From positions 6,535 to 70,534 of the forward strand of contig JAYTUW010000043.1 of the NCBI GenBank assembly GCA_043744345.1: DNA of 64,000 nucleotides, in the 5' to 3' direction. Shown here in pieces: positions 5,305 through 61,041 of the stretch. Position 1 is the first letter of the stretch, and each line of letters starts with the position of its first letter. The translations under genes and the position numbers were made by a program. Origin of the DNA: Sideroxydans sp. (GTDB lineage Bacteria; Pseudomonadota; Gammaproteobacteria; Burkholderiales; Gallionellaceae). The notes under the pieces are model-generated. The model searched no databases. It had not been told where the DNA came from and saw nothing but the letters and a program-made list of their open reading frames with translations.

Positions 5305-5329
5305 TTGACCATCGGCAAAACCGGAGGCT

Positions 5330-5700
5330 TATTGGGCGAGTCTTGCAAAGGGGCCGCTCAAATGGCGAGTCGCCCAAGCCATCCACACCCACCACTTCCC
5401 CCTTTGTAAAGGGGGGTAGCTGTTGTTTCATATTTCAGCTCCGCGTTGAAGATCGCATCGCTCAAACTTGACGAGTCCCCCGCCCAAGCCGTCCACACCC
5501 ACCACTTCCCCCTTTGTAAAGGGGGACTGGAGGGGGATTTAAAAACGTGGAACATCCTCCTCCCTCAAATCCCCCCTGGCCCCCCTTTTGCAAAGGGGGG
5601 TTGCTGTTGTTTCAAATTCCAGCTCCGCGTTGGAAGATTGCTTCGCTCAAACCTTGGCGAGTCCTCCGCCAGCACACACCACCCCCCTCAAGAATAGGGA
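5330..5700. repeat. Intergenic cluster of ~110-bp direct repeats containing CCCCCTTTGTAAAGGGGG-type palindromes
   Basis: CGCCCAAGCC(A/G)TCCACACCCACCACTTCCCCCTTTGTAAAGGGGG occurs at 5371-5416 and 5481-5526. GCTGTTGTTTCA.ATT.CAGCTCCGCGTTG.AAGAT.GC.TCGCTCAAAC occurs at about 5419-5477 and 5603-5664. Degenerate copies lie at both edges. The cluster fills the MCP-cheR spacer. Confidence 0.8.
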
Positions 5701-5739
5701 GGGCGAATCACCATGCATATTTCACGCTAAGATAGCGGC

Positions 5740-6582
5740 ATGGACAATGCCCGCCCGCGCGAATTCGAATTCACCGACCAGGACTTCCAGCGCATCCGCA
5801 AGCTGATCTACGAGCACGCGGGCATCTCGCTGGGCGAGAACAAACAGGAGTTGGTATACAGCCGTCTGGCGCGTCGCCTGCGTGCGCACGGTGTGTCGAC
5901 TTTCGCCGCCTATCTGGACAAACTGCAGCGAGGGGATGCTGCAGAGTGGGAGGCGTTCACCAACTCGCTCACGACCAACCTCACCTCGTTCTTTCGAGAG
6001 CCGCACCACTTTCCCATTCTCGCCGAGCATCTGCGCAAACAGGAGGCGTCTCGCCAACTCACGCTGTGGTGTTCCGCCTGCTCGACCGGCGAGGAGGCCT
6101 ACTCGATGGCGATGACCGCCGTGGAGACCCTGGGGAATTGCGAAAACAGAGTGCACATCATCGCTTCCGATCTGGACACCAAAGTGCTGCAGGCGGCACG
6201 TGAAGGCCTGTACAAGGCCGATGCCGTGGCTAAATTGCCAGCGCAGCAGGTGGACCGATTCTTCACGCGCGGCACCGGTGCACAGGCCGGGTTTGTGCAG
6301 GTCAAGCCGGAACTCAAACGCATGATCGACTTCCGCTGCGTCAATCTGCTGGATGCCATGTGGCCCGTGCATGCGCCGCTGGATGTCATCTTCTGCCGCA
6401 ATGTGATGATCTATTTCGACAAGGCGACCCAGCTGGCCATCCTCAAAAAGTTTGCCCCGTTGCTGCGGGAGAACGGGCTGCTGTTTGCCGGGCATTCAGA
6501 GAGCTTCTATCACGCGAGCAGCATATTCAAGTTGCGCAGCCATACCGTGTATGAGTTGACCGCGCAGGCGAAAGGAAAGTGA
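5740..6582 (+). CDS. cheR: Chemotaxis protein methyltransferase CheR
   Basis: The N-terminus [42 protein letters not shown] is typical of CheR. A SAM-binding core is present ([25 protein letters not shown]). Confidence 0.9.
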
Positions 6583-7160
6583 TGGGCGAAAAGATCATCG
6601 TGGTCGGCTCGTCCACGGGGGGGACGGATGCGCTCAAGGTGTTCCTGTCCGGCATGCCGGAACATGCACCCGCCATCCTCATCGCACAGCACATGCCGGA
6701 GTTGTTCACCAAGTCTTTCGCCGAGCGTCTGGATCATCTTTGTACGATGCATGTGACAGAGGCGCTGCACCATGAGGATATCGTGGCGGGGCATGTCTAT
6801 CTGGCGCCCGGGCACTCGCATCTGTCGCTGGAACGCGGTGCCGGAAAGTGGCGTACCGTGCTCAGCCAGGATCCGCCGGTCAACCGTCACCGTCCCTCGG
6901 TGGAAGTGCTGTTTCTTTCCGCAGCCAGACTGCTGGGCAAGGACGCCATCGGCGTGATGCTCACCGGCATGGGCAAGGACGGTGCCGCAGCCATGCTGGA
7001 GATGAAGAAGGCGGGCGCTTACAATTTTGCGCAGGATGAAGCGAGTTGCGTGGTATTCGGTATGCCGCGCGAAGCCATCGCGCTGGGGGCGGTGGACGAG
7101 GTTGTGCCCTTGAAGAACATGGCGGAGCGGGTGCTGGCAAGGCTCTCCCTGGCTAGATAG
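6579..7160 (+). CDS. cheB: Chemotaxis methylesterase CheB, catalytic domain only (no receiver domain)
   Basis: This 193-aa protein starts in an ATGA overlap with the cheR stop, which leaves no room for a REC domain. Esterase motifs are present: [12 protein letters not shown] (Ser), IAQHMP (His), LTGMGKDGA (Asp) and GMPREA. Confidence 0.85.
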
Positions 7161-7236
7161 ACCCCATTTCCCCCGCTGTTCAGCGGATTGGATTTCACGA
7201 TATTGCCGATAATCGCCATGAGCAAAGGAGTTTGCC

Positions 7237-8388
7237 GTGGCCGAACAAGACAGTGACCTGGAAAAAACGGAATCGCCCTCGCAGCGGCGGTTGGACCAAG
7301 CCCGTGAAGAAGGGCAGGTCGCGCGTTCGCGCGAGCTTTCCACCTTTGCCGTGCTGATGGCGGGCGGGGCGGGGGTCTGGCTCATGGGGTCAGCCCTGGC
7401 GGGGCAGCTCCTTTCGGTGGTCCGCGAAGGGCTGACACTGGATACCGGTCTGGCCTTCCATTCCGATCAATTATTGCAGCGCCTGCATGACCTGAGCATG
7501 GCGACCCTGCTTGCTTTTCTGCCCTTGTTTGTCCTGATGCTCGCCGTTGCCGCGTTCTCGCCGTTGCTGCTGAACGGCTGGCTGTTCACGTTGAAACCGC
7601 TGCAGCCCGATCTGAACAAACTCAATCCCCTGAACGGCATCGCGCGCATGTTTTCCATCAACAGCCTGATGGAGCTGGCCAAAGCCATCGCCAAGACCCT
7701 TGTGGTGGGCGGCATCGGTGCCTGGGTGATCTGGCACAACAAGCAGGCTGTGCTGCAGTTGGTGAGCGAGCCCATCGCTTACGCCATTCCTCATCTGGGC
7801 AGCCTGGTGTGGGGCAGCTTTGCCGCCATCATGGGCGGATTGCTGTTGATCGTGGCGGTGGATGTGCCGTTCCAGTTGTACGAGCACAACAAGAAACTGA
7901 AGATGACCAAGGAAGAGGTGCGCCAGGAAGCCAAGGAGACCGAGGGCGATCCACAGGTCAAGGCGCGCGTGCGCAGCATGCAGCGCGAGATGGCGCGCCG
8001 CCGCATGATGGCAGAAATCCCCACCGCCGATGTGGTGGTGACCAACCCGACGCACTTCTCCGTGGCACTCAAATACAGCGAGAACAAGATGCGCGCGCCG
8101 GTCGTGGTCGCCAAGGGTTCGCACCTGATGGCGGCGAAGATCAAGGAGATCGCCAAAGAGCACAATATCCCCATTCTCGAAGCCCCGCCGCTGGCGCGCG
8201 CCCTGCACAAACACTGCGATTTGGGCGAAGCTATTCCGGAAGCATTGTTCAACGCGGTGGCCGAAGTGCTGGCCTACGTTTACCAGTTGCGCCGGTACAA
8301 AAAAGTGGGCGGTGCCTATCCGGAAGAGCCGGGCGAGTTGCCCGTCCCCCGCGAACTCGACCCCGGTGTGCAAACGCTGGCAAGCTGA
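7237..8388 (+). CDS. flhB: Flagellar export apparatus protein FlhB
   Basis: GTG start 7 nt after AAAGGAG. The N-terminus MAEQDSDLEKTESPSQRRLDQAREEGQVARSRELS and the NPTH autocleavage motif (VVVTNPTHFSVAL) are present. Confidence 0.95.
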   Translation: MAEQDSDLEKTESPSQRRLDQAREEGQVARSRELSTFAVLMAGGAGVWLMGSALAGQLLSVVREGLTLDTGLAFHSDQLLQRLHDLSMATLLAFLPLFVLMLAVAAFSPLLLNGWLFTLKPLQPDLNKLNPLNGIARMFSINSLMELAKAIAKTLVVGGIGAWVIWHNKQAVLQLVSEPIAYAIPHLGSLVWGSFAAIMGGLLLIVAVDVPFQLYEHNKKLKMTKEEVRQEAKETEGDPQVKARVRSMQREMARRRMMAEIPTADVVVTNPTHFSVALKYSENKMRAPVVVAKGSHLMAAKIKEIAKEHNIPILEAPPLARALHKHCDLGEAIPEALFNAVAEVLAYVYQLRRYKKVGGAYPEEPGELPVPRELDPGVQTLAS

Positions 8389-8645
8389 TCCGGCGGGAGT
8401 GGTGTGCCCAAACTGCCACAGCTATTGGCCATTCCGCCCGGACGGCGTAATCTCCACCCGAAATCCTGAGTAATCTTGCGCGTCTGCAGACGGCAGCCGA
8501 AATCGCGCCGAGTCACCCCGGGAATTTCGGCTGGATACCGCCGATTAAGGTGTGTTGGGTGGTTGAACATCTGCAAAGCCAGGGAACGGATGCCGAATTG
8601 GGGCGGGCGTTTCCGGCGTGGTGAAATCAAACGGGGAGAATCGAA

Positions 8646-9761
8646 ATGCAAGTCGACTCAATGCACTGGACAGCCCCGACGGGCTGGGAGTCCATTCCGG
8701 CATTCGCGGCGGATGCCGATCTTGTTTTGGTGTTTGCCGACACGGACTATTTTCAGACTGGGGCCTGTTATACCGAATTGCGCGGAATATTCCCGAAAGC
8801 GCATATCGCCGGTTGTTCCTCATCCGGCAGCGTGCTGGGGGGGCAGATCAGCGACGGGGATGTGGTGGCGACGGCGATCAGGTTGGAGCATTCATCCATG
8901 CGCATGGCAACGGTCGATATAGACTCGGACGCGGATGCGCGCGAACTGGGTACACAATTGATGAAAGAACTGGTCGCGCCGGACTTGCGCCACGTCTTTG
9001 TGCTCTCCGACGGTTTGCAAGTGAACGGCAGTGATCTGGCTCAAGGGTTGAACCGGACCGGCGTTCCGGTGACCGGCGGGCTGGCGGGTGACGGCACGCG
9101 TTTCGGCAAGACCTGGGTGATGGCGGATGCACCTGCAAAATGCGGGCGCATCACGGCGCTGGGGTTCTATGGTGATGTCACCGTCAAAAGTGGTTGCTTT
9201 GCCGGGTGGAAAGAGTTTGGTGCCGAACGTATCGTCACCAGATCAAAGGGTAATGTGTTGTACGAGATCGACGATGGTCCCGCGCTGGACCTGTACAAGA
9301 AATACCTCGCCGAGCAGGCAGTGAACCTTCCCGCCAGCGGTTTGCGCTATCCCTTGAGCATCCGCTCAAGTATCGCGGAAAAGCCATTGATCAGGACGTT
9401 GCTTGCGGTCGACGAGGCCGCGCGCAGCCTGACCTTCGCGGGCGATGTCCCGCAGGGCTATCTGTGCAAACTGATGCGCACCGACCTTGACAGCCTCATC
9501 GACAACGCGGGGTTGGCAGCCGAAGCGGCACAACCGGCCAAGCCGGGCACGACCGGGCTGTGTCTGGTCGTGAGTTGTGTGGGGCGGCGGTTGGTGATGG
9601 GGCAGCTGACCGAAGAGGAGCTGGAAATCGTTCAGGACAAGCTGGGCGCATCCACCGCCATCACCGGTTTTTATTCATACGGCGAACTGGCACCGTTCAG
9701 TGACGTGTTGCAATGCCAGTTGCATAACCAGACCATGACGCTCACCACCCTGTACGAATAA
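8646..9761 (+). CDS. Stand-alone FIST-domain (FIST_N + FIST_C, NosP-like) sensor protein
   Basis: N-terminal FIST signature: ADLVLVFADTDY...FPKAHIAGCSSSG. C-terminal FIST_C signature: ITGFYSYGELAPFS...CQLHNQTMTLTTLYE. No output domain is present. The gene is flanked by spacers of 257 nt and 223 nt. Confidence 0.8.
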   Translation: MQVDSMHWTAPTGWESIPAFAADADLVLVFADTDYFQTGACYTELRGIFPKAHIAGCSSSGSVLGGQISDGDVVATAIRLEHSSMRMATVDIDSDADARELGTQLMKELVAPDLRHVFVLSDGLQVNGSDLAQGLNRTGVPVTGGLAGDGTRFGKTWVMADAPAKCGRITALGFYGDVTVKSGCFAGWKEFGAERIVTRSKGNVLYEIDDGPALDLYKKYLAEQAVNLPASGLRYPLSIRSSIAEKPLIRTLLAVDEAARSLTFAGDVPQGYLCKLMRTDLDSLIDNAGLAAEAAQPAKPGTTGLCLVVSCVGRRLVMGQLTEEELEIVQDKLGASTAITGFYSYGELAPFSDVLQCQLHNQTMTLTTLYE

Positions 9762-9984
9762 TCCAGGCCAGGCGGCGGCGCGGCCGTGGCCGAACGGAAG
9801 CTGCCCCGGACGAACCGCAAGCAGTCGTCAGAATGTGCCAGTGGCAATGCACCGCATACCCCGACCGGCCAAATAGCCGCACAAATCCCCCTCTATTCAC
9901 CTCATCGGTTTGACAGCCGTTCCTGATAATACGCACAAGAGAAGTGGTCCTTGCGGACCGCGGAAATGAAACCCAGAGGTGCGT

Positions 9985-12069
9985 ATGTCCATGCTTGAAA
10001 TGTTGAAGTCCGCGATGCTGCGCGGCGGTGTAAGGGGGTTGGCCGGCCCCATCCTGATCGTGATGATCCTGTCGATGATGGTGCTGCCGCTGCCGCCGTT
10101 CCTGCTCGACATCCTGTTCACTTTCAATATCGCGCTGGCCATCATGGTGTTGCTGGTGGCGATGAACACGACCAAGCCGCTGGATTTTGCCGTGTTCCCC
10201 ACCGTGCTGCTGATCTCCACCCTGTTGCGCCTGTCGCTCAATGTCGCCTCCACCCGCGTGGTGTTGTTGGAAGGCCATACCGGTCCGGCGGCGGCGGGCA
10301 AGGTGATCGAGTCCTTCGGGCATTTCCTGGTCGGCGGCAATTATGCCGTGGGCATCGTGGTGTTCGTGATCCTGGTGGTCATCAACTTTGTGGTCATCAC
10401 CAAGGGCGCCGGACGTATCGCCGAAGTGGGCGCGCGGTTCACGTTGGACGCGATGCCCGGCAAACAGATGGCCATTGATGCCGACCTGAACGCGGGCCTG
10501 ATCGGCGAGGACGTGGCGCGCAAACGCCGCGCCGAGATCGCGCAGGAAGCGGATTTCTACGGCGCCATGGACGGTGCCTCCAAGTTCGTGCGCGGCGATG
10601 CCGTCGCCGGCATCATCATCATGCTCATCAATATCGTCGGCGGACTGGTCATCGGCGTGATGCAGCACAATCTCGATTTGGCCACGGCGGCACACAACTA
10701 CACCCTGCTCACCATCGGTGACGGACTGGTGGCACAGATTCCAGCGCTAGTGATCTCCACCGCGGCCGGCATGGTGGTTAGCCGCGTTTCCAGCGAGGAC
10801 AACATTGGCCAGCAACTGGCCAAGCAACTGATCTCGAGTCCGCAAGTGCTGATCCTGACCGCGACCATTATCGGCATGCTGGGCGTGATTCCGGGCATGC
10901 CGCATTTCGCGTTCCTGCTGCTGGCCGGGGCGATGGGCTGGTTCGCATTCTTTCTGTTACAGCGCACAAAGCTCGATGAAGAAAAGGCTGCAGCCGAGGA
11001 GAACCCGGTTGTCGCGCCCAGCACCGAGGCACCGGAGGCCAGCTGGGAAGATGTGGCTCAAGTGGATGTGCTGGGGCTGGAGGTCGGCTACCGGCTGATC
11101 GCGCTGGTGGACAAGGCGCAGGATGGCGACCTGTTGCGCCGTATCAAAGGAATACGCAAGAAATTCACGCAGGACATGGGTTTTCTGCCGCCCGCCGTGC
11201 ATATCCGTGACAATCTGGATCTGCGTCCCAACGGTTATCGCATCACACTCAAAGGTGCGGAGATCGGCAGCGGCGAGGCTTATCCCAATCTGTTCCTTGC
11301 CATCAATCCCGGCAATGTGAGCGGCACGCTGCCCGGCACACAGACCAAAGACCCCGCGTTCGGACTGCCCGCCATCTGGGTGGACGCCGGGGTGCGCGAA
11401 CAGGCCCAGGTCATGGGTTATACCGTCGTTGATGCGGGCACCGTGGTGGCGACGCACATGAGTCATCTTATCCACCTGCATGCGGCAGAATTGCTGGGCC
11501 GCCAGGAACTGCAGCAACTGCTGGATCATCTCGGCAAGATCGCGCCCAAGCTGACCGAAGACCTTATTCCCAAGCTGCTGTCGCTGGCGACCGTGCAGAA
11601 GGTGATGCAGAACCTGCTCGACGAAGGAATGCACATCCGCGATATGCGCACCATCCTGGAGACGCTGGCAGAGCATGCGCCGCAGACGCAGGACGCGAAC
11701 GTGCTGACCAGCCTGGTGCGCGTGGCGCTGGGAGCGGCCATCGTGCAGCAGTACTACCCGTCGGCACAGGAGCTGCAAGTCATCGGCATGGACAAGGAGC
11801 TGGAATACGTGCTGGCACAGGCCCTGCAGGCGGGCGGGTCCGCCATCGAGCCCAGCCTCGCCAATACCCTGCTGCGCGAGGCGCGCAATGCGACGCAGAC
11901 GCAGGAACAATTGGGCCTGCCCACGGTATTGCTGGTGCCGGGCCACATCCGCGACCTGTTATCGCGCTTCCTCAAGCGCTCGTTACCGCAACTCAAAGTC
12001 ATTTCACAAGAAGAAGTACCGGGGTTCAAGACGGTACGGTTTACATCCATGGTAGGGGGTAGAGCATGA
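9985..12069 (+). CDS. flhA: Flagellar export apparatus protein FlhA
   Basis: Matches the FlhA family (GPILIVMILSMMVLPLPPFLLDILFTFNIALAIMVLL, FHFLVGGNYAVGIVVF, and a large cytoplasmic C-domain). The start could instead be GTG 9979, ATG 9985 or ATG 9991. Confidence 0.93.
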   Translation: MSMLEMLKSAMLRGGVRGLAGPILIVMILSMMVLPLPPFLLDILFTFNIALAIMVLLVAMNTTKPLDFAVFPTVLLISTLLRLSLNVASTRVVLLEGHTGPAAAGKVIESFGHFLVGGNYAVGIVVFVILVVINFVVITKGAGRIAEVGARFTLDAMPGKQMAIDADLNAGLIGEDVARKRRAEIAQEADFYGAMDGASKFVRGDAVAGIIIMLINIVGGLVIGVMQHNLDLATAAHNYTLLTIGDGLVAQIPALVISTAAGMVVSRVSSEDNIGQQLAKQLISSPQVLILTATIIGMLGVIPGMPHFAFLLLAGAMGWFAFFLLQRTKLDEEKAAAEENPVVAPSTEAPEASWEDVAQVDVLGLEVGYRLIALVDKAQDGDLLRRIKGIRKKFTQDMGFLPPAVHIRDNLDLRPNGYRITLKGAEIGSGEAYPNLFLAINPGNVSGTLPGTQTKDPAFGLPAIWVDAGVREQAQVMGYTVVDAGTVVATHMSHLIHLHAAELLGRQELQQLLDHLGKIAPKLTEDLIPKLLSLATVQKVMQNLLDEGMHIRDMRTILETLAEHAPQTQDANVLTSLVRVALGAAIVQQYYPSAQELQVIGMDKELEYVLAQALQAGGSAIEPSLANTLLREARNATQTQEQLGLPTVLLVPGHIRDLLSRFLKRSLPQLKVISQEEVPGFKTVRFTSMVGGRA

Positions 12070-35503: not shown

Positions 35504-35543
35504 CAGGGTCGCAGGTGCGAATGAATTCGCACCTGCGACCCTG
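35504..35543. repeat. 40-bp perfect palindrome (19-bp arms) in the nuclease/isochorismatase divergent spacer
   Basis: The sequence is CAGGGTCGCAGGTGCGAAT-GA-ATTCGCACCTGCGACCCTG, ending 32 nt upstream of the 35576 ATG. Confidence 0.9.
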
Positions 35544-38724: not shown

Positions 38725-38762
38725 TCTTTCACTCCTTTCGGTTTGCAGAGTCTCTGGCAGGG

Positions 38763-38809
38763 GCCAGCTTGCTGGCGAATCTTTCTGGCATTTTCGCCAG
38801 CAAGCTGGC
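38763..38809. repeat. Perfect 17-bp-stem hairpin in the ubiV-ubiT spacer
   Basis: GCCAGCTTGCTGGCGAA, a 13-nt loop, then TTCGCCAGCAAGCTGGC, lying 3 nt from the ubiV stop. Confidence 0.9.
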
Positions 38810-38811
38810 TC

Positions 38812-39705
38812 CTACACGCTGTGTTGTTGCTGGTGATGCTGCGCGATGCCCGCATCACCGAACCAGTAGCCGTCCACCAGCCCGTCTGCGCACCAGTCGT
38901 GCATGTCGGGGCTGACCTTCTGTCCGTTGCGTGCCGCATCGAAGGCGGCGATGATGCCCGCCGTATGCTGCGGCTGCGGACTGACGCGAATGATGTCTAT
39001 GCCCATCTGCAGCATGTCCGGCACTTCGTTGAGCAGATTATAACTCTGTGCCGACATGGTCTGGATACCGTTGATGGTCAGGAACGGCTGGCCCTCGCGC
39101 GTCTTCAGCGTGATGCCTTCCGGGTGCTCCATGCACTTGAACTGGCAGTCGTCCTTGTTCAGGTCGTAATGGCGCGCGGTGAAGCAGCGCGCCGAGAACG
39201 CCAGCGGGATCTTGCCGTACACGAAGACCTCTGTTTCCATTCCGGCGGGGCGGCTGTTGTGCAGCGTCTCGACCAGCTTGCGGTCGGCTTCCAGCGGCGG
39301 CACCCAGCGTTGCATGCCGTAGCGCGCGTAGGTCGCCAGCGTGGCCTCGTTGTAGATATTGAGGTGCGGCCCGGCGACAAAGGGGCGGCCGGCGGCGATG
39401 TTTACCGCGCCCAGATCGTTGGCTTCGACTTTGCAGTTGCCTTCGTCCATCAGGCGGCGCAGCGCTTTCAGGTCGCTTTCCGATTCGAGCAGCGCCTGTG
39501 CCGACACCACGACTTCTTTGCCCGCGTCGGCGAGGGTGCGGGCCAGCGCGATCCAGTCGGCCACGCGCAATTGCTGGCGGCGCGAGCACACTACTTCGCC
39601 GACGTAGATGATGTCGAGTGCGGGGTTCTGCGCCATCTCGGCGTAGAAATCGAGCACGGTCTGTTTCGGCCAAAAATACAGCAACGGTCCCAGAGATAAT
39701 TTCAT
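38812..39705 (-). CDS. ubiV: U32-family O2-independent ubiquinone hydroxylase subunit UbiV (YhbV-like)
   Basis: The internal ATG gives [25 protein letters not shown]...[13 protein letters not shown], closely matching the E. coli UbiV N-terminus as I recall it. The track's 5' extension crosses a hairpin region and was rejected. Confidence 0.8.
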
Positions 39706-39723
39706 TACTAAAACCCCGCACCA

Positions 39724-39783
39724 CAGAGACACAGAGACACAGAGAACTTCCTCTCCGGTTGTCTCTGTGTCTCTGTGTCTCTG
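39724..39783. repeat. Perfect 22-bp-stem hairpin built from (CACAGAGA)n in the ubiU-ubiV spacer
   Basis: CAGAGACACAGAGACACAGAGA, a 16-nt loop, then TCTCTGTGTCTCTGTGTCTCTG. A second small hairpin, GGGGCTGAAGCCCC, follows at about 39812-39825. Confidence 0.9.
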
Positions 39784-54068: not shown

Positions 54069-54146
54069 TCTCGGGAACTGCTTTGGTGCTCAATCCGCGG
54101 GTGTGTAGCCGGATTCATTTGAAGCAAGACTTTGAGTGGCGTAAAA

Positions 54147-56675
54147 ATGACTATTGGGGCTTTTTCGCAACAGACTGCGCAGGCGAGCGAACAGGCTTTG
54201 CGCGAAGCGGTCAGTCAGCATGATGCAGGCAACCTGCATGAGGCTGAAATGCGTTTTCGGGCTATTTTGCAACGCGATCCGAATCATCCCGAAGCGAACT
54301 ATTTCATGGGCGTATTGGCGATGCGGCAGAAGCAGGTCTCTTTAAGCCTGCCCTATTTCCTGGTTGCTTTGAATGCGGATCCGGCACGTGGCTATTACTG
54401 GCTGAGTTATGTCGAGGCGCTGTTTCAGACCGGACAACTGGAAGAGGCACGCCAGATTCTGGCATTGGCCCGACAACATGGTTTGGAAGGTGAAGAAACA
54501 GAGGCTTTGGCGGTACGTTTGGACGGCAAGGAGGGCGTCGTCGAAAGGCCGGCAGTCGCCGAACCGTGGCCTCCTTCGCATGCAGGCCAGATGGATATCC
54601 CGAATACGTCCGAAGCAAAGACCCCGAGCCCGGACAGATCCGGCAATCAACCGCAACAAGCTCCTTTCCCTGAAGAAATAGACGCGCTGGTGGCGCTGTT
54701 TAACCAGGGACGCTTTTCTGAAGCCATAACTGATGCCCGATCCATGACGGAGGATCATCCCGAACACTGGGTAGGCTGGAAGATGTTGGGCGTGGTATTT
54801 CAGCAGCTGGGCCGAGATGAGGATGCATTACTGCCGATGCAAAAAGCGGCGGCACTGTCACCAGGTGATGCCGAGGCACACAATAACCTGGGCATCATCC
54901 TGCAGAATCTGGGACGACTGAATGAGGCGGAGGCCAGCTACCGGCGCGCACTGAGGATCAACCCGGATTATGCGCATGCGCAAGGCAATCTGGGGGCGAC
55001 GCTGCAAGCTTTGGGTCGCATGGCCGAGGCCGAGGCCAGCTACCGACGGGCGTTGCAGATCAACCCGAATTACGCCAAGGCACGCGGTAATTTGGGCGCA
55101 GTACTGCGTGCCTTGGGCCGACAAGACGAGGCTGCAGCCAACTACCGAAGCGCTCTGCAAATCAACCCGAATGACATAGAAGTGCATTTCAATCTAGCCG
55201 CTCTCCTGAGGGATATGGGGCAACTAGATCAAGCCGAAAACCAATATAGGCAAGTACTGAAGCTCGATCCGGACTACGCCGAAGTACATTTCGACTTGGG
55301 TAATCTGCTTCAGGATAGCGGGCGTCTGGCCGCGGCGGCGGAGAGCTACCGGCAAGTGCTCAGGATAAAACCGGATTTCACCGAGGCACACAACAACCTG
55401 GGCGCCATATTGCTGGAATCGGGTCGGCTGGATGAGGCTGCGGCCAGTTTTCGGTGTGCGCTGGAGATCGATCCGAGACATGCCAAGGCACACAACAACC
55501 TGGGTGCCGTACTGCTGGAAACGGGTCGGCTGGATGAGGCTGCGGCCAGTTTTCGGCGTGCGCTGGAGATCGATCCGAGTCATGCCAAGGCACATAACAA
55601 CCTGGGCGCCGTACTGCTGGAAATGGGCCGACTGAATGAGGCTGCGGAGAGCTACCGGCGCGCGCTGGAAATCAAGCCGGATTATGCAGAGCCTTGTTTC
55701 AACCTGGGTCATGTGCTCTGCGATCTGGATGATCTCGATCGGGCTGCCGCTGCCTATCAAAAAGTCATGGACATCTCACCCCTAAACACCGGCTTGGATG
55801 CGGAGGTCTATTTGGCCATATTGCATTACTTGAAAGGCAATCTGGTGCAATGCCGAAACATGCTCAACGTGTCCCGGACGATCATGACGCAGGTCAATGA
55901 CAAGCGAAAGAATGTTTGCGGTTATTGGTTCTACCTCGACAAACTGTTATCGGGTCAGACGCAAGCTATTCAAAGCGGCCCTCAGCCTGCGGAGGCTGAA
56001 ACGCTATATGTGATCGGAGAAAGTCATTCTTTGAGTGCACACGGCGTGGAGGTTCGCTACAACAAACGGAAGATGCATGCCAGAGCAGAATGGATTTCCG
56101 GATGCAAGCAATGGCATTTGGGCAATGGCAAAAACAACAAGTACAGGCAAAAATTCGGGGCAGTCATGGCCAGGATACCGCGCTCATCCACCGTTTTGCT
56201 GGAGATTGGCGAAATAGATTGTCGGCACGACGAAGGTATCATCAAGGTATGGGAAAAACATCCAGAAAAAGAATTGGATGAAATTGCCCGTGTCACGTCA
56301 ACCGCTTACCTTAACCATGTGGCCGGGACCGGAAAACACTATGGGCATAGAATCATCATCGCCGGGGTGCCCGCGCCCAACATTGCTTCAATTGCGATAA
56401 CGGCGACCGCAGCCGGGCGGCTTGTTCATTTGATCCGGAAATTCAATGCAACTTTAAAGGAACTGGCGTTAGATTCAGGCATGGGTTTCTTGGACGTGTA
56501 CGCGCTGACTGATCGCGGAGATGGTATGGCGGACGGACAATGGCACATCGACTCTTACCATTTGCTGCCCGGTGCCGTGATAGAAGCTTTTGACAAGTTC
56601 TGTTTGCCGGGAATTGAGCCGGTAACCGGTCAACACAGCGAATGCGCCAGCGACCGAACCGATCAGACTGAATGA
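54147..56675 (+). CDS. TPR-repeat protein with C-terminal SGNH/GDSL-like domain (tentative)
   Basis: It has the shared N-terminal module, then ~11 TPR units, then a ~290-aa C-domain. That domain carries GESHS (56016-56030), IGEIDC and DSYH (56550-56561), resembling SGNH blocks I, III and V. An alternative GTG start lies at 54132. Confidence 0.7.
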   Translation: MTIGAFSQQTAQASEQALREAVSQHDAGNLHEAEMRFRAILQRDPNHPEANYFMGVLAMRQKQVSLSLPYFLVALNADPARGYYWLSYVEALFQTGQLEEARQILALARQHGLEGEETEALAVRLDGKEGVVERPAVAEPWPPSHAGQMDIPNTSEAKTPSPDRSGNQPQQAPFPEEIDALVALFNQGRFSEAITDARSMTEDHPEHWVGWKMLGVVFQQLGRDEDALLPMQKAAALSPGDAEAHNNLGIILQNLGRLNEAEASYRRALRINPDYAHAQGNLGATLQALGRMAEAEASYRRALQINPNYAKARGNLGAVLRALGRQDEAAANYRSALQINPNDIEVHFNLAALLRDMGQLDQAENQYRQVLKLDPDYAEVHFDLGNLLQDSGRLAAAAESYRQVLRIKPDFTEAHNNLGAILLESGRLDEAAASFRCALEIDPRHAKAHNNLGAVLLETGRLDEAAASFRRALEIDPSHAKAHNNLGAVLLEMGRLNEAAESYRRALEIKPDYAEPCFNLGHVLCDLDDLDRAAAAYQKVMDISPLNTGLDAEVYLAILHYLKGNLVQCRNMLNVSRTIMTQVNDKRKNVCGYWFYLDKLLSGQTQAIQSGPQPAEAETLYVIGESHSLSAHGVEVRYNKRKMHARAEWISGCKQWHLGNGKNNKYRQKFGAVMARIPRSSTVLLEIGEIDCRHDEGIIKVWEKHPEKELDEIARVTSTAYLNHVAGTGKHYGHRIIIAGVPAPNIASIAITATAAGRLVHLIRKFNATLKELALDSGMGFLDVYALTDRGDGMADGQWHIDSYHLLPGAVIEAFDKFCLPGIEPVTGQHSECASDRTDQTE
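55389..55694 (+). repeat. Three tandem 102-bp near-identical TPR-coding repeats inside the 54147-56675 gene
   Basis: The units start at 55389, 55491 and 55593 (HNNLGA(I/V)LLE.GRL(D/N)EAA.S(F/Y)RRALEI.P..A.A). Units 1 and 2 differ at only a handful of nucleotides. Confidence 0.9.
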
Positions 56676-56682
56676 CTTCATA

Positions 56683-58563
56683 ATGGGATCGCCCTTCATG
56701 ACAAAAGATTCTTCTCCACAACAAAATGTATTGCAGGCGGTAGAGCAGGCATTTGTTTATGCCGAAGCGCAACACCGAGCTGGCAAGTTGCAGGAAGCGG
56801 AACAGCTATACCGGGCCATACTGCAACTCAGCCCGGCTCATCCAGAGGCGAATCACAACATGGGTGTTCTGTCGGTCCAGTCCGGGCAACCCGCCTCCGG
56901 GTTGCCGCATTTCATGGCTGCACTGGAAGCCGATCCCGCGCGCGGGCAGTACTGGCTGAGCTATATCGACGCGCTGTACCGGTCGGGACAGACGGAAGAT
57001 GCGCGGCAGGTGCTGGCGCTTGCCAAACAGCAGGGGCTGCAGGGCGAAGAGATAGACGCGCTGGTCGGCTTGCTTGAAGCTCAGACTCAATCCGCTATAC
57101 CTAAGGACACAGGCGGCAGCCCGCCTGCTGCGGTTAAACCGGGATGCGCACACAACGGCGGCGAACCCTCGACGCAGGAACGCAACCAGATCGTCAAACA
57201 GTTCAATGAAGGGCGCTATGCAGAGGTGGTCCCCCTCGCCAGGGAGCTTACTGAGCGTTATCCGGGGAGCGGATTCGGGTGGAACGTGTTGGGTGCGGCG
57301 CTCAAACAGACGGGACAGACCGCGGACGCGCTGCTCCCCATGCAAAAAGCGGCAGCGCTGTCGCCGGGTGACTCCAATGCGCTGTGCAATCTGGGGGCCA
57401 TTCAACAGGATCTGGGGCAGTCGCAAGAGGCGGAAGCAAACCTCAAACGCGCGCTGCAGATCAATCCGTCCAATGCGGATGCGCATTGCAACCTGGCTTT
57501 GGTCCTGCAGTGCCTGGGGCAGTCGGTCGAGGCCGAAGCCGGTTACCGGAGGGCACTACAGCTCAAGCCGGATCTGGCGGTCGCGCATTGCAATCTGGGC
57601 ATGACCCTGCACAGCCAGGGCCGGATGGCCGAGGCCGAAACCAGTTACCGGAACGCGACACGCATCAGACCGGACTTTGCCGCCGCACATTCCAATCTGG
57701 GGATCACCCTGCAAAGCATGGGACGGCTGGAAGAAGCCGCGGCGAGCTTGCGCCAGGCCCTGCAGATCCAGCCGGATTTTGCCGATGCACACAGCAGCCT
57801 GGGCATCACCCTGCAGCAACTCGGGAAGCCGGAAGAGGCACTTTTCCATTTCCGCGAGCGGGTCAGACTGACGCCCGGAAATGTGGTGGCGCAACATCAG
57901 ATCGATTCGCTGACCGGCAAGACTACCGAGCGCGCGCCGGACCAGTATGTTGAAAAAGTCTTCGACAATTACGCGGAAAGGTTCGATACCCATCTGCAAA
58001 AAGTGCTGCTATACGATATCCCCGGCAAGCTGGTCACGCTGCTCCTGCGGCACATGCCTGCGGGCGAAAAGAAAAATGTGCTTGACCTGGGTTGTGGCAC
58101 CGGTCTGATCGCGACCGAGATCGCTCCCCATGCGCAGCAACTGGTCGGGGTCGATCTTTCCGCCAAGATGCTGGAGAAAGCCCGCGCGCGGAATCTGTAT
58201 CAGCGTCTGGAGCGTTCCGACCTGCTGGGCATGATGCAGGGTGAGAAGGCCGCAAGCCACGACTTGGTCATCGCCGCAGATGTGTTCGTGTATGTGGGTC
58301 GGCTGGAAGAGATTGTTGCCGAAGTTAAGCGCCTGCTGACACCCGGCGGTATGTTCGCCTTCTCCACCGAAGCCCTGGAAGACGCGCAGGGAGAGGATAT
58401 CGGCTACCGGCTGGAACCCACGGGACGTTATTCCCACGCGGTTGCCTACCTGTCGCGGCTTGCAGCCGCAAACGGATTCAGGGTGCTGGAGTCGGTTCCC
58501 ACCCGCATCCGTACCGAGCATGGCAAGCCGGTCAATGGTCATATGGCTGTGTGGCAGAACTGA
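56683..58563 (+). CDS. TPR-repeat protein fused to a class I SAM-dependent methyltransferase (COG4976-like)
   Basis: The shared N-terminal module and TPR units are followed by VLDLGCGTGLIATEI...VGVDLSAKMLEKA...HDLVIAADVFVYVGRL...GGMFAFSTE. The C-domain is paralogous to that of 32623-33912. Confidence 0.8.
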   Translation: MGSPFMTKDSSPQQNVLQAVEQAFVYAEAQHRAGKLQEAEQLYRAILQLSPAHPEANHNMGVLSVQSGQPASGLPHFMAALEADPARGQYWLSYIDALYRSGQTEDARQVLALAKQQGLQGEEIDALVGLLEAQTQSAIPKDTGGSPPAAVKPGCAHNGGEPSTQERNQIVKQFNEGRYAEVVPLARELTERYPGSGFGWNVLGAALKQTGQTADALLPMQKAAALSPGDSNALCNLGAIQQDLGQSQEAEANLKRALQINPSNADAHCNLALVLQCLGQSVEAEAGYRRALQLKPDLAVAHCNLGMTLHSQGRMAEAETSYRNATRIRPDFAAAHSNLGITLQSMGRLEEAAASLRQALQIQPDFADAHSSLGITLQQLGKPEEALFHFRERVRLTPGNVVAQHQIDSLTGKTTERAPDQYVEKVFDNYAERFDTHLQKVLLYDIPGKLVTLLLRHMPAGEKKNVLDLGCGTGLIATEIAPHAQQLVGVDLSAKMLEKARARNLYQRLERSDLLGMMQGEKAASHDLVIAADVFVYVGRLEEIVAEVKRLLTPGGMFAFSTEALEDAQGEDIGYRLEPTGRYSHAVAYLSRLAAANGFRVLESVPTRIRTEHGKPVNGHMAVWQN

Positions 58564-58568
58564 GCGGT

Positions 58569-61001
58569 ATGGCGGCTTCGGCACACGGAAAAAGTCCTGC
58601 CAGCCGGGAGATTGATGAGCTGGTGGCACTGTTCACACAGGGCAGGAGCAGCGAGGCCGAGACCCTTGCGCGGAATATGACACAACGCTTCCCGACTCAC
58701 TGGGTCGGCTGGAAGATGCTGGGCGTACTGTTCAGCCAGGCGGGGCGCATTCAGGAGGCTCTGGTTCCCATGCAAAAAGCAGTCGCACTGCTGCCCCATG
58801 ACGCGGAAGCACATAACAACCTGGGCATCACCCTGCAGGCGCTGGGCCGCTTGGGGGAATCCGAGTCCAGCTACCGGCGGGCGCTGGCGATCAATCCGGG
58901 ATATGCACAGGCATACTGCAATCTCGGTACCGTACTGCAGGATGCGGGACGTCCCGACGCGGCGGAAGCGGCCTACCGGCGAGCGCTGGCGATCAATCCC
59001 GGCTATGCGAAAGCGTACAACAATCTGGGTGCGGTGTTGCACGACACGGGCCGCCCCGACGCATCCGAGGCCTGTTACCGGAGTGCATTGCAGGCCGATC
59101 CCGGAAATGTGGAAGCACACAACAACCTCGGAATCGCGCTGGGTGAATTGGGGCGACTGGACGAAGCGGAAGCCTGTTGCAGGCGCGCGCTGCAGATCGC
59201 TCCGGATTACGCCGATGCCCACTACAGCCTGGGTAATGTGTATGCAGTTTCGAATCGCCTGGACCAAGCGGCAGCCTGCTACCTGCAGGCGCTTCAGCTC
59301 AAACCGGATCTTGTCAACGCCCTCGATAGCCTTGCATTGCTGTCCGCAGCACAGGGAGATCCGGCGGCGGCTTTGGAGAGCATCAGGCGATCCATGCAAA
59401 TCAGGGAAACAGCCGAGTCCAGAAATATTTTCGTGGCGTGCGTCAGGGGTTTGCACTTGACGCAGGACGACGCTGTGCTCCGTGGCGAGCTGGTGCGTGC
59501 CATGGACGAACCGTGGGGGCGTCCGGCCGAGTTGGCACCGGTCTGCCTGCAGGTCATCCAGCTCGGAGCGCATCTGAAGCCGCTTCTGCAGACGGTTCAG
59601 AACGCCTGGCCGAGGCGACTTTCGCAAAATGAGTTGTTTGGCGATCGCGGCCTTGCCGCCATGGAGTCCGACAGGTTGTTGCGGTCCGTTCTGGAGGCAA
59701 CTCCCGTGTGCGACATCGGGATGGAGCGACTGCTGACGCTGGCGCGGTATGCGCTGCTTGAACAGGCCGCTGCCGCGGGCGACGTGCAGGACGCCGGATC
59801 GGTCTTCTGGAGTGCGTTGGCGCGCCAGTGTTTTATCAATGAATATGTCTTTGACTGCACCGGTGAAGAATCGAAACGCGCTCAGGCGCTGTGCGAAGCC
59901 CTGGCTGCCGCGATGATCGCCAACCGGCCTGTGCCCGAGCTTTGGATCTTCGCCGTGGCCGCCTATTTTCCCCTGCATACATTGGACTTTGCCGGCCAAC
60001 TCCTGGACATGGAGTGGTCCGAGAGTGTGAAGGCATTGCTGCTGCAGCAAGTAATCGAGCCGCGGGAAGAATCCGGGTTGCGGGCGACGATCCCCAGCGT
60101 GACGCGCATAGATGACGAGGTCTCGCTGCGTGTCCGGGATCAATATGAGGAGAATCCCTACCCGCGCTGGGTCCGGTTGGCTCCGGCGGGAGAGGCGAGG
60201 AACATCGTAAGTTACCTGTGCCGGAAATTCCCCGCTGCCGACTTCAACCGCGAGCCTAAGCAGGGCAGGGTCGATATCCTTGTGGCGGGTTGCGGCACGG
60301 GACAGCACTCGATCAGCGCGGCGCTGCGAACACAGGCGGCGGACGTGTTGGCAATCGACCTGAGCTTGAGCAGCCTGGCCTACGCCAGGCGCAAGACACT
60401 TGAGCTCGGGCTGGGTTCGGTGGAATACGCACGTGCGGATATATTGGAGCTGGGTTCGCTGCAGCGCAGTTTCGATGTGATCGAATCCTCCGGTGTGTTG
60501 CACCATCTCGCTGATCCGTGGGCGGGATGGAAGGTGCTGCTGTCATTGCTCCGGCCCGGCGGTTTCATGAAGCTGGGTTTTTACAGCGAGGCCGCGCGCC
60601 GCGATGTTGTTCGCATACGGTCTTTCATCGCTGAAAAAAATTACGGCGCGACAGCCGCGCAGATCCGGCAGTGCCGCCAGGAACTGGCCGGACTGGATGC
60701 GTCCGAAAATTTTGGTGCCATATTGAGTTCGCCCGATTTCTTCAGCATCAGCGCCTGTCGCGACCTGCTATTCCATGTGCAGGAACATCGCATGGCGTTG
60801 CCGGAGATTGCTGCTTTCCTGCGCGAGAATGGATTGCGCTTTCTCGGGTTTGATATTGATGCGGAAGTCATCCAGGCCTACCGGCGCCGTTTTCCCGGAG
60901 ACCGCGCTGCCGTCGATCTGGAACAGTGGCACATTTTTGAGAGCGAGCACGGTGATACTTTTTCCAATATGTACCAGTTCTGGGTGCAAAAAGCGGATTG
61001 A
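58569..61001 (+). CDS. TPR-repeat protein + unassigned middle region + class I SAM-dependent methyltransferase
   Basis: It starts with the second shared module (SREIDELVALFTQGR...GWKMLGV...MQKAVALLP). About 7 TPR units follow, then a ~280-aa region ending in QYEENPYPRW, then DILVAGCGTGQHS...DLSLSSLAYARRK...FDVIESSGVLHHL...RPGGFMKLGFYS. An alternative ATG lies at 58551. Confidence 0.75.
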   Translation: MAASAHGKSPASREIDELVALFTQGRSSEAETLARNMTQRFPTHWVGWKMLGVLFSQAGRIQEALVPMQKAVALLPHDAEAHNNLGITLQALGRLGESESSYRRALAINPGYAQAYCNLGTVLQDAGRPDAAEAAYRRALAINPGYAKAYNNLGAVLHDTGRPDASEACYRSALQADPGNVEAHNNLGIALGELGRLDEAEACCRRALQIAPDYADAHYSLGNVYAVSNRLDQAAACYLQALQLKPDLVNALDSLALLSAAQGDPAAALESIRRSMQIRETAESRNIFVACVRGLHLTQDDAVLRGELVRAMDEPWGRPAELAPVCLQVIQLGAHLKPLLQTVQNAWPRRLSQNELFGDRGLAAMESDRLLRSVLEATPVCDIGMERLLTLARYALLEQAAAAGDVQDAGSVFWSALARQCFINEYVFDCTGEESKRAQALCEALAAAMIANRPVPELWIFAVAAYFPLHTLDFAGQLLDMEWSESVKALLLQQVIEPREESGLRATIPSVTRIDDEVSLRVRDQYEENPYPRWVRLAPAGEARNIVSYLCRKFPAADFNREPKQGRVDILVAGCGTGQHSISAALRTQAADVLAIDLSLSSLAYARRKTLELGLGSVEYARADILELGSLQRSFDVIESSGVLHHLADPWAGWKVLLSLLRPGGFMKLGFYSEAARRDVVRIRSFIAEKNYGATAAQIRQCRQELAGLDASENFGAILSSPDFFSISACRDLLFHVQEHRMALPEIAAFLRENGLRFLGFDIDAEVIQAYRRRFPGDRAAVDLEQWHIFESEHGDTFSNMYQFWVQKAD

Positions 61002-61041
61002 GTTCGTACATAATCATGAATCGATGCCAGGGAAAGCCAAC

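Follow-up and report, generated by a model that had tools for sequence, protein, structure and literature searches.

A FIST gene between flhB and flhA in a Gallionellaceae genome is very probably the stranded sensor of a decayed three-gene cyclic di-GMP cassette

The window analysed in this work is a 64-kb stretch of DNA (64,000 nucleotides, nt) from a Sideroxydans genome, in which a gene of the FIST family lies between the flagellar export genes flhB and flhA. The gene order is cheW, three genes for methyl-accepting chemotaxis proteins (MCPs), cheR, cheB, flhB, FIST, flhA, flhF, flhG, fliA, motA and motB, followed by the flg genes. The window FlhA shares 93% identity with that of Sideroxydans lithotrophicus ES-1 and 95% with those of Sideroxyarcus metagenome-assembled genomes (MAGs), and therefore the organism is a member of the Gallionellaceae in the Sideroxydans/Sideroxyarcus group; its flhB is 84% identical at the nucleotide level to the flhB of loci L172 and L173. 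FlhA homologues measure 694 amino acids (aa), those of Sideroxydans and Sideroxyarcus being 93-98% identical to the window protein, and because of this length the flhA start was placed at the ATG at 9985. With this start, the spacers around the FIST gene are 257 nt (8389-8645) and 223 nt (9762-9984) long, as the initial annotation of this DNA had stated, and its description of a 371-aa protein made only of FIST_N and FIST_C was likewise confirmed by the open reading frame (ORF), the Pfam domains and the flanking genes (Table 1). Both signature stretches that it quoted occur in the product, a Shine-Dalgarno sequence (GGAG, 8635-8638) stands 7 nt ahead of the ATG, and the GC content of the gene equals that of its surroundings. 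The order cheB-flhB-FIST-flhA, 100% identical, was assembled independently from two further sequencing runs (L170 and L171), and therefore the arrangement is no assembly artefact.

Table 1. Features in and around the flhB-flhA junction, in window coordinates.
Feature	Position	Strand	Basis or remark
flhB, 383 aa, borders the insertion site on the left	7237..8388	+	Pfam Bac_export_2, E 9e-132
Conserved cassette-proximal motif CAGCTATTGGCCATTCCGCCCGGACGGCGTAATCT	8419..8453	+	Sigma-70-like, weak: TTGGCC 8425-8430, 17 nt, TAATCT 8448-8453
Probable relic of a decayed HD-GYP response-regulator gene (nosR-like)	8460..8543	+	Codons ~228-268, running into the HHExxDG/GYP motifs
Perfect 10-bp inverted repeat with a 20-nt loop	8494..8533	+	Hairpin of the initial annotation, within the probable nosR relic
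FIST gene (FIST_N + FIST_C), intact, 371 aa	8646..9761	+	ATG start, Pfam; NosP-like auxiliary sensor without cis partners
Pseudogene relic of a hybrid histidine kinase 3' end (nosK-like)	9765..9847	+	Last ~28 codons, Hpt tail; alignment with L090, L028, L022
Conserved flhA upstream region or leader, with stem-loop 9944-9961	9865..9984	+	Kept with or without the cassette
flhA, 694 aa, borders the insertion site on the right	9985..12069	+	Pfam FHIPEP, E 1.8e-271

Pfam assigned FIST_N to residues 25-210 (E 1.1e-46, 159.6 bits against a cut-off of 23.2) and FIST_C to residues 213-350 (E 4.9e-33, 114.5 bits against a cut-off of 28.5), both above gathering and in the expected N-to-C order, and detected no further domain in the 371-aa protein, so that its initial placement in the family that includes NosP was right. 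The FIST fold was also recovered in an AlphaFold2 (AF2) model with a predicted local distance difference test (pLDDT) of 76.5 and a predicted template-modelling score (pTM) of 0.77, and no solved bacterial FIST or NosP structure was found by sequence or profile. The NosP equivalog model NCBIfam NF041558 matched residues 23-348 with 61.3 bits (E 8e-17), far from its cut-off of 450; judged by these scores, the window FIST is a NosP homologue and not an equivalog, and is NosP-like in architecture only. Reviews describe the way in which FIST binds its ligands as poorly understood to date (PMC8846402). The invariant residues C311, C357 and H360 sit in the AF2 loops of lowest confidence, and these loops may be taken, as a lead only, for a candidate cofactor site.

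In agreement with the initial annotation, neither a kinase nor a c-di-GMP (cyclic di-GMP) enzyme is encoded beside the FIST gene, and no gene for either was found in the annotated or searched parts of the 64-kb window, where the large ORFs at 54-64 kb encode tetratricopeptide-repeat (TPR), methyltransferase and GT41 proteins and no partner kinase. The c-di-GMP response regulator that shares the operon in nosRPK-type systems is represented in the window by a probable decayed fragment only.

The situation in relatives was examined in 80 loci from species-representative genomes, 80 loci from metagenomes and individual look-ups, with the neighbour genes classified by tblastn against domain exemplars. 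The FIST protein has thousands of homologues, the best 120 of which are 70-83% identical to it, and those among these 120 with a source name come from Gallionellaceae or other Nitrosomonadales. Whereas the window gene lacks an adjacent histidine kinase, a co-directional gene with PAS and/or kinase-core domains begins no more than 60 nt after the FIST stop in 64 of the 68 unique loci that have at least 64% identity and downstream room, most commonly after a gap of 9 nt and typically with the kinase start 2-15 nt past the FIST stop; in three of the other four such a gene is slightly displaced, and only L006 has none. The same coupling occurs in 74 of 87 loci at 44-64% identity, from Campylobacterota, Planctomycetota, Zetaproteobacteria and others. 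In close relatives, the downstream partner according to Pfam is a cytoplasmic hybrid kinase of 1100-1370 aa with four to five PAS domains, HisKA, HATPase_c, two REC domains and Hpt. The upstream partner is often a 352-aa REC-HD-GYP response regulator, which was found in 15 of 53 close homologues with room for it, including the nearest relatives L009, L090 and L130; 14 upstream regulators were seen to have intact HD, HHExxDG and GYP motifs.

Some of these cassettes are enlarged: in L004, L022 and L026, two more genes lie between the HD-GYP regulator and FIST, one for a di-haem cytochrome c peroxidase (CCP/MauG) and the other for a DAHL-PAS hybrid kinase, so that a single FIST gene stands between two hybrid kinases, an arrangement that hints at peroxide or redox sensing. 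The FIST family also contains giants with three or four tandem FIST units, such as P0122 (1230 aa) and P0121 (2378 aa). A Rosetta-stone argument from gene fusions was rejected, as none of the long fusions tested joins FIST to a histidine kinase; they comprise FIST with a Ser/Thr kinase (P0152), a triple FIST (P0122) and FIST with a tail that has no Pfam match.

The spacers of the window appear to hold remains of both partners. Profile-HMM and blastx searches of the spacers for partner-gene relics gave weak matches that were not significant alone, and the relics were recognised only when the spacers were aligned collinearly, at the nucleotide level, with the nearest relatives and when six-frame alignments were calibrated by shuffles. 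On the downstream side, homology between the window and L090 continues for 5 nt beyond the FIST stop, after which the sequence is collinear with kinase 3' ends and terminates exactly at the position of the stop codon of the L090, L028 and L022 kinases, where the conserved intergenic region takes over in the same order. Its translation EAAPDEPQAVVRMCQW (9797-9844) matches the kinase end EAALDELVAAIRAYQW, which is closed by the stop, with a score of 41 that was reached by 1 of 300 shuffles, and a local nucleotide alignment of the tail was equalled by 1 of 500. Decay is visible as a 1-nt deletion between 9795 and 9796 and as a stop codon mutated from TAA/TGA to CAA at 9845-9847. Dating the deletion from this tail proved uninformative, as the intact orthologues are equally divergent in that segment.

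On the upstream side, frame +3 of the spacer reads EILSNLARLQTAAEIAPSHPGNF against EVLNASNSSLLKVAAEIAHTHHEKF of NosR, with a best six-frame Smith-Waterman score of 44 that was reached by 7 of 300 shuffles. The segment contains indels and has 50-54% nucleotide identity to regulator genes that share 69-83% among intact orthologues, and it is a probable relic of the HD-GYP regulator gene. The 10-bp-stem hairpin to which the initial annotation had drawn attention is exact, with arms CAGCCGAAAT (8494-8503) and ATTTCGGCTG (8524-8533), but it lies inside this putative relic: the left arm corresponds to the nosR codons for AAEI and the right arm to those for KFDG. It is conserved in no relative examined, has no T tract and was not called as a terminator by the scan; its local fold of -20 kcal/mol (z -1.9) was equalled by 11 of 200 shuffles, and it is one of about nine distinct perfect inverted repeats of at least 10 bp in the window (45 overlapping matches against 2.5 in shuffles). 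The hairpin is thus best read as a by-product of decayed coding sequence and not as a conserved operon element. As a whole, the upstream spacer was rejected as a structured RNA (z +0.97). Taken together, the long spacers would be the decayed wreckage of both lost partners, the regulator at the 5' side and the kinase at the 3' side.

Two other segments of the spacers are shared with relatives. The cassette-proximal motif is common to the flhB-nosR spacers of L028 (87% over 31 nt) and L130 and to the orphan locus L173; it is missing from the empty-site spacers of L174, L176 and L177, and L172 has a weak resemblance only, by eye. It is plausibly the former nosR or cassette promoter, now situated 5' of FIST, and the consensus scan did not call it. 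The segment in front of flhA shows identities of 84% with L090, 87% with L173 and 82-86% with the empty sites L172 and L174, and its stem-loop just before the flhA ribosome-binding site folds with -12.3 kcal/mol (z -3.3); the leader of L028 folds well with a different stem sequence (z -3.8) and that of L090 folds weakly. This segment may be a regulatory leader of flhA. Its sequence, AAATCCCCCTCTATTCAC ... GATAATACGCA, is strongly conserved in cassette-bearing, orphan and empty sites alike.

Other candidate signals were discarded. Terminator and sigma-70 promoter scans gave counts no higher than in shuffles, with neither a terminator after flhB nor a sigma-70 promoter in the spacers. A sigma-28 promoter for FIST was dismissed, since GCCGATTA at 8540-8547 resembles a -10 box but no TAAA stands at the required distance, and the complete sigma-28 pattern is matched nowhere in the window. 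A sigma-28 -10 consensus, GCCGATAA, was noticed at 7205-7212, 25 nt 5' of the flhB start, and it too has no TAAA -35 box at canonical spacing. Rfam found no relevant RNA element in the spacers, its lone match (GRIK4) being spurious, below gathering and inside the FIST ORF.

Comparison across the Gallionellaceae identified the flhB-flhA junction of these iron-oxidising Betaproteobacteria as a variable site that is empty, filled with a full cassette or occupied by a stranded sensor, and neither this variability nor the two retained orphans were described in the literature searched. Among the nine closest loci (FlhA 93-98% or FlhB 91%), FIST is missing from five, namely L172 (FlhA 97%), L175 (96%), L176 (95%), S. 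lithotrophicus ES-1 (93%) and Sideroxydans sp. CL21 (93%), whose spacers measure 133-254 nt, the shortest being that of ES-1. The full cassette is present in two close relatives of the window genome, L090 (FlhA 94%) and L130 (FlhB 91%), the latter locus ending inside FIST. The remaining two have an orphan FIST: the window and L173, a Sideroxyarcus MAG (GCA_030652215.1; FlhA 95%) in which the spacers are 160 and 165 nt long. More widely, the order flhB-cassette-flhA is seen in L020, L022, L028 and L103, cassette-flhA in L021, L090 and L109, and flhB-cassette in L004, L023, L026, L106, L130 and L132. The initial statement that flhB and flhA are normally adjacent holds for the five empty loci, and FIST has neither the conserved presence nor the conserved position in the relatives' flagellar loci that would mark a flagellar gene.

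The two orphans differ in their junctions, as about 20 nt of the kinase tail may remain in L173 (by eye) against about 85 nt in the window, and the L173 FIST is nearer to those of the cassette-bearing L090 and L009 (83%) than to that of the window (77%); therefore the two strandings are independent. In a neighbour-joining tree, which carries no support values, the window FIST groups with L009, L090 and L110. The window state clearly derives from a full cassette. Synonymous divergence (dS) of FIST is about twice that of flhA for the same genome pairs (window versus L173 and L090, 1.2-1.4 against 0.54-0.74), which suggests older alleles, recombinational exchange of the cassette between lineages or a stronger codon constraint on flhA.

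The orphan gene itself shows the marks of constraint. Its ORF is open over 1113 nt with no frameshift or stop, its pairwise dN/dS against relatives is about 0.10, and it keeps all 80 positions that are conserved in at least 95% of 85 diverse FISTs, the invariant Cys and His residues included. On the terminal branches, nonsynonymous and synonymous changes (N:S) and omega were counted at nucleotide sites where the other eight sequences do not vary, which gave 17:10 and 0.06 for the window and 13:2 and 0.17 for L173, the two orphans, compared with 5:5 and 0.03 for L090, 5:6 and 0.024 for L009 and 2:7 and 0.009 for L110, in which FIST is embedded in the cassette. Both orphans are therefore under purifying selection that is relaxed relative to the embedded orthologues (0.01-0.03) yet strong. 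FIST has stayed at 72-80% nucleotide identity while the putative nosR relic fell to about 50%, and such a near-saturated relic beside an intact FIST argues, on a basis of about 25 codons, that FIST was maintained after the loss.

Based on these findings, we propose that the FIST gene is the stranded member of a three-gene cassette formerly situated between flhB and flhA, an origin of which we are highly confident because it is supported by the domain architecture, the same-site cassette in relatives and the relics. The ancestor would have been an operon of a REC-HD-GYP regulator, FIST and a hybrid kinase, the regulator being a c-di-GMP phosphodiesterase with intact catalytic motifs. In operons of this kind, the FIST protein binds a ligand (haem/nitric oxide, NO, in characterised NosPs) and modulates the autophosphorylation of the adjacent kinase, which in turn governs the HD-GYP regulator together with c-di-GMP levels and motility. 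The window lineage would then have lost the regulator and the kinase in two deletions, with the relics, the upstream motif and the intact FIST ORF left behind. The protein is presumably still made, given the good Shine-Dalgarno sequence, the promoter-like motif and the lack of a predicted terminator after flhB, and it would now exert its effect in trans, on a paralogous kinase of the NosK type whose gene lies elsewhere, and therefore any flagellar effect would be indirect, through two-component and c-di-GMP signalling. We give continued function in trans about even chances, and the explanation as a whole, a stranded NosP-type sensor that still signals through a kinase encoded elsewhere, is the one we favour by a modest degree.

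A number of observations weigh against this proposal. No trans partner kinase was identified in the annotated or searched parts of the 64 kb of the genome that were available, the haem-binding residues of NosP are not defined in the literature searched (PMC8846402), and the significance of the nosR relic is moderate only (p ~0.02). The window FIST has also accumulated 29-34 lineage-specific amino acid changes against 12-15 for L009 and L090, with Tajima p values of 0.007-0.05 for most outgroups, 0.11 for one and no significance against L110, whereas the window FlhA is not accelerated. At sites that do not vary among eight relatives, 10 changes are found in each orphan compared with 1-2 in the embedded copies, and the pooled N:S of the orphans (30:12) differs from that of the embedded genes (12:18; chi-square by hand, p ~0.01). 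Five of the closest relatives, finally, lost or never had the whole cassette.

The principal alternative, which we regard as a real but distinctly weaker possibility, is that FIST is a relic without function that is in the course of being lost, with an ORF that is open only for lack of time. The flanking pseudogene relics fit such a course, as do the significantly accelerated amino acid change of the window copy and the five- to tenfold excess of changes that both orphans show at otherwise invariant sites; the absence of the whole cassette from five close relatives, ES-1 and CL21 among them, further means that the gene is dispensable in the clade. However, the terminal-branch omega of 0.06-0.17 is far below 1, 1113 nt have remained free of frameshifts and stops while the nosR relic, with its indels, has dropped to about 50% identity, all residues invariant across the family are retained, and a second lineage has, independently, lost both partners and preserved precisely the FIST ORF.

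This double sole retention would also be explained by a ligand sensor that works independently of a kinase and acts directly on the export gate or on FlhF, FlhG or chemotaxis proteins, for example by ligand-dependent binding to the C-terminal domains of FlhA or FlhB, to FlhF or to FlhG. We consider such a job, tied to the flagellar export and assembly genes, improbable. Two independent orphans have been kept between flhB and flhA, co-transcription with flhB is possible in that no terminator is predicted between flhB and FIST, and the cassette recurs at the flagellar site in several Gallionellaceae lineages. Yet there is no evidence of contact with flagellar proteins, FIST is tightly coupled to a kinase gene in nearly all close homologues, and close relatives build the same flagellar locus without it. 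Flagellar context is found in only about one fifth of the close homologues with enough flank (7 of 36 by flhB, 6 of 35 by flhA), and about 80% sit elsewhere in the genome, L007 next to transposases. The initial suggestion of a sensor newly embedded in the export-gate operon as an undescribed direct input is thus not supported, the gene being instead very probably a remnant of an ordinary nosR-nosP-nosK-type cassette found at the same site in relatives, and the finding that the initial annotation had named as a refutation, a gene at other genomic positions in relatives, is largely what was observed. As the flagellar position is nevertheless found repeatedly, in several lineages of the Gallionellaceae, a regulatory link to motility through c-di-GMP is plausible. 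If true, a kinase-independent role of FIST would mean that flagellar assembly receives small-molecule input of a new kind.

That FIST alone was inserted horizontally between flhB and flhA, with the likeness of the spacers to partner genes due to chance, is hardly credible: the empty sites of close relatives do look pristine, as in ES-1, and the doubled dS is compatible with an imported allele, but the sequence after the FIST stop is collinear with the last kinase codons, ends at the kinase stop position and is followed by the same intergenic region, the closest genomes hold the full cassette at the same site, and all of this agrees with the import of an entire cassette and subsequent deletion but not with the import of FIST only.

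Several further elements were observed in the window. CheB (6579-7160) has just 193 aa, a methylesterase domain without the N-terminal receiver domain, and a short CheB (190-193 aa) was called in all close relatives examined, which makes it a conserved trait of the chemotaxis cluster. Between the MCP-CZB gene and cheR, a 435-nt gap (5305-5739) is taken up by repeated units (direct repeats of 51 nt and 45 nt, 90-98% identity) built around three copies of the palindrome CCCCCTTTGTAAAGGGGG (at 5398, 5508 and 5581), which have the look of repetitive extragenic palindromes or miniature inverted-repeat transposable elements (REP/MITE); the same two genes are only about 10 nt apart in L172 and L174, so the repeat block looks like an insertion. 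Long perfect or near-perfect inverted repeats lie at 39722-39783, 35504-35543 and 38759-38813, namely a (CAGAGACA)n palindrome whose arms measure 22 nt, a perfect palindrome of 19 nt around a 2-nt loop and a pair of 21 nt at 95%. At 54132-63747, adjoining the flagellar genes, four consecutive genes encode large TPR proteins, two with class I methyltransferase domains and one with a GT41 (O-GlcNAc-transferase-like) domain, and this block may be a flagellin-modification island.

For annotation, the stranded-sensor origin means that an odd gene with long spacers is explained by decay of a nosRPK-like c-di-GMP and two-component cassette and not by a new flagellar component. The orphan would also serve as a natural experiment to learn if a FIST auxiliary sensor continues to function once its cis-encoded kinase is gone, and the full cassette of the relatives, with its catalytically intact HD-GYP regulator located within the flagellar locus, is a sensible candidate for coupling a redox- or NO-type signal to motility in these microaerophiles.

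Among known proteins of the fold, the best structural match of the AF2 model is the FIST domain of eukaryotic FBXO22 (PDB 8ua3 and 8s7d; Foldseek E 1e-7, probability 1.00, template-modelling score 0.45-0.50). However, FBXO22 has only 12% sequence identity and is a ubiquitin-ligase substrate receptor, which offers no functional parallel. The stand-alone auxiliary sensors of Pseudomonas aeruginosa NosP/NahK (PA1975/PA1976), Legionella NosP-NahK-NarR and Vibrio cholerae NosP-HqsK likewise consist of FIST_N and FIST_C, and they act through the co-encoded kinase to feed c-di-GMP or phosphorelay control of the switch between biofilm and motility (PMC8846402; PMC13654575). An indirect flagellar effect through phosphorelay and c-di-GMP is in keeping with findings in other bacteria: NO causes c-di-GMP to fall in V. 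cholerae and flagellar genes to be induced (PMC12704800), and flagellar protein levels are changed in an hnoX/nosP mutant of that species (PMC13654575). In contrast to these systems, the window FIST is distant (61 bits against 450) and has no adjacent kinase.

The nearest likeness is to nosR-nosP-nosK of Burkholderia pseudomallei (BPSS1648-1647-1646), in which NosP binds NosK and inhibits its autophosphorylation, more so with an NO donor, NosK phosphorylates the HD-GYP regulator NosR, and deletion of nosP or nosK alters swimming motility and biofilm (PMC12570481). The relatives of the window genome have the same order, with a REC-HD-GYP regulator, a stand-alone FIST and a cytoplasmic kinase directly downstream, although their kinase is a large multi-PAS hybrid with two REC domains and Hpt and not a small sensor-less kinase, their HD-GYP motifs are intact and not degenerate, and their cassette is located within the flhB-flhA junction, with the di-haem peroxidase and the DAHL-domain hybrid kinase added in some versions. 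Compared with the B. pseudomallei system, only the FIST gene survives in the window.

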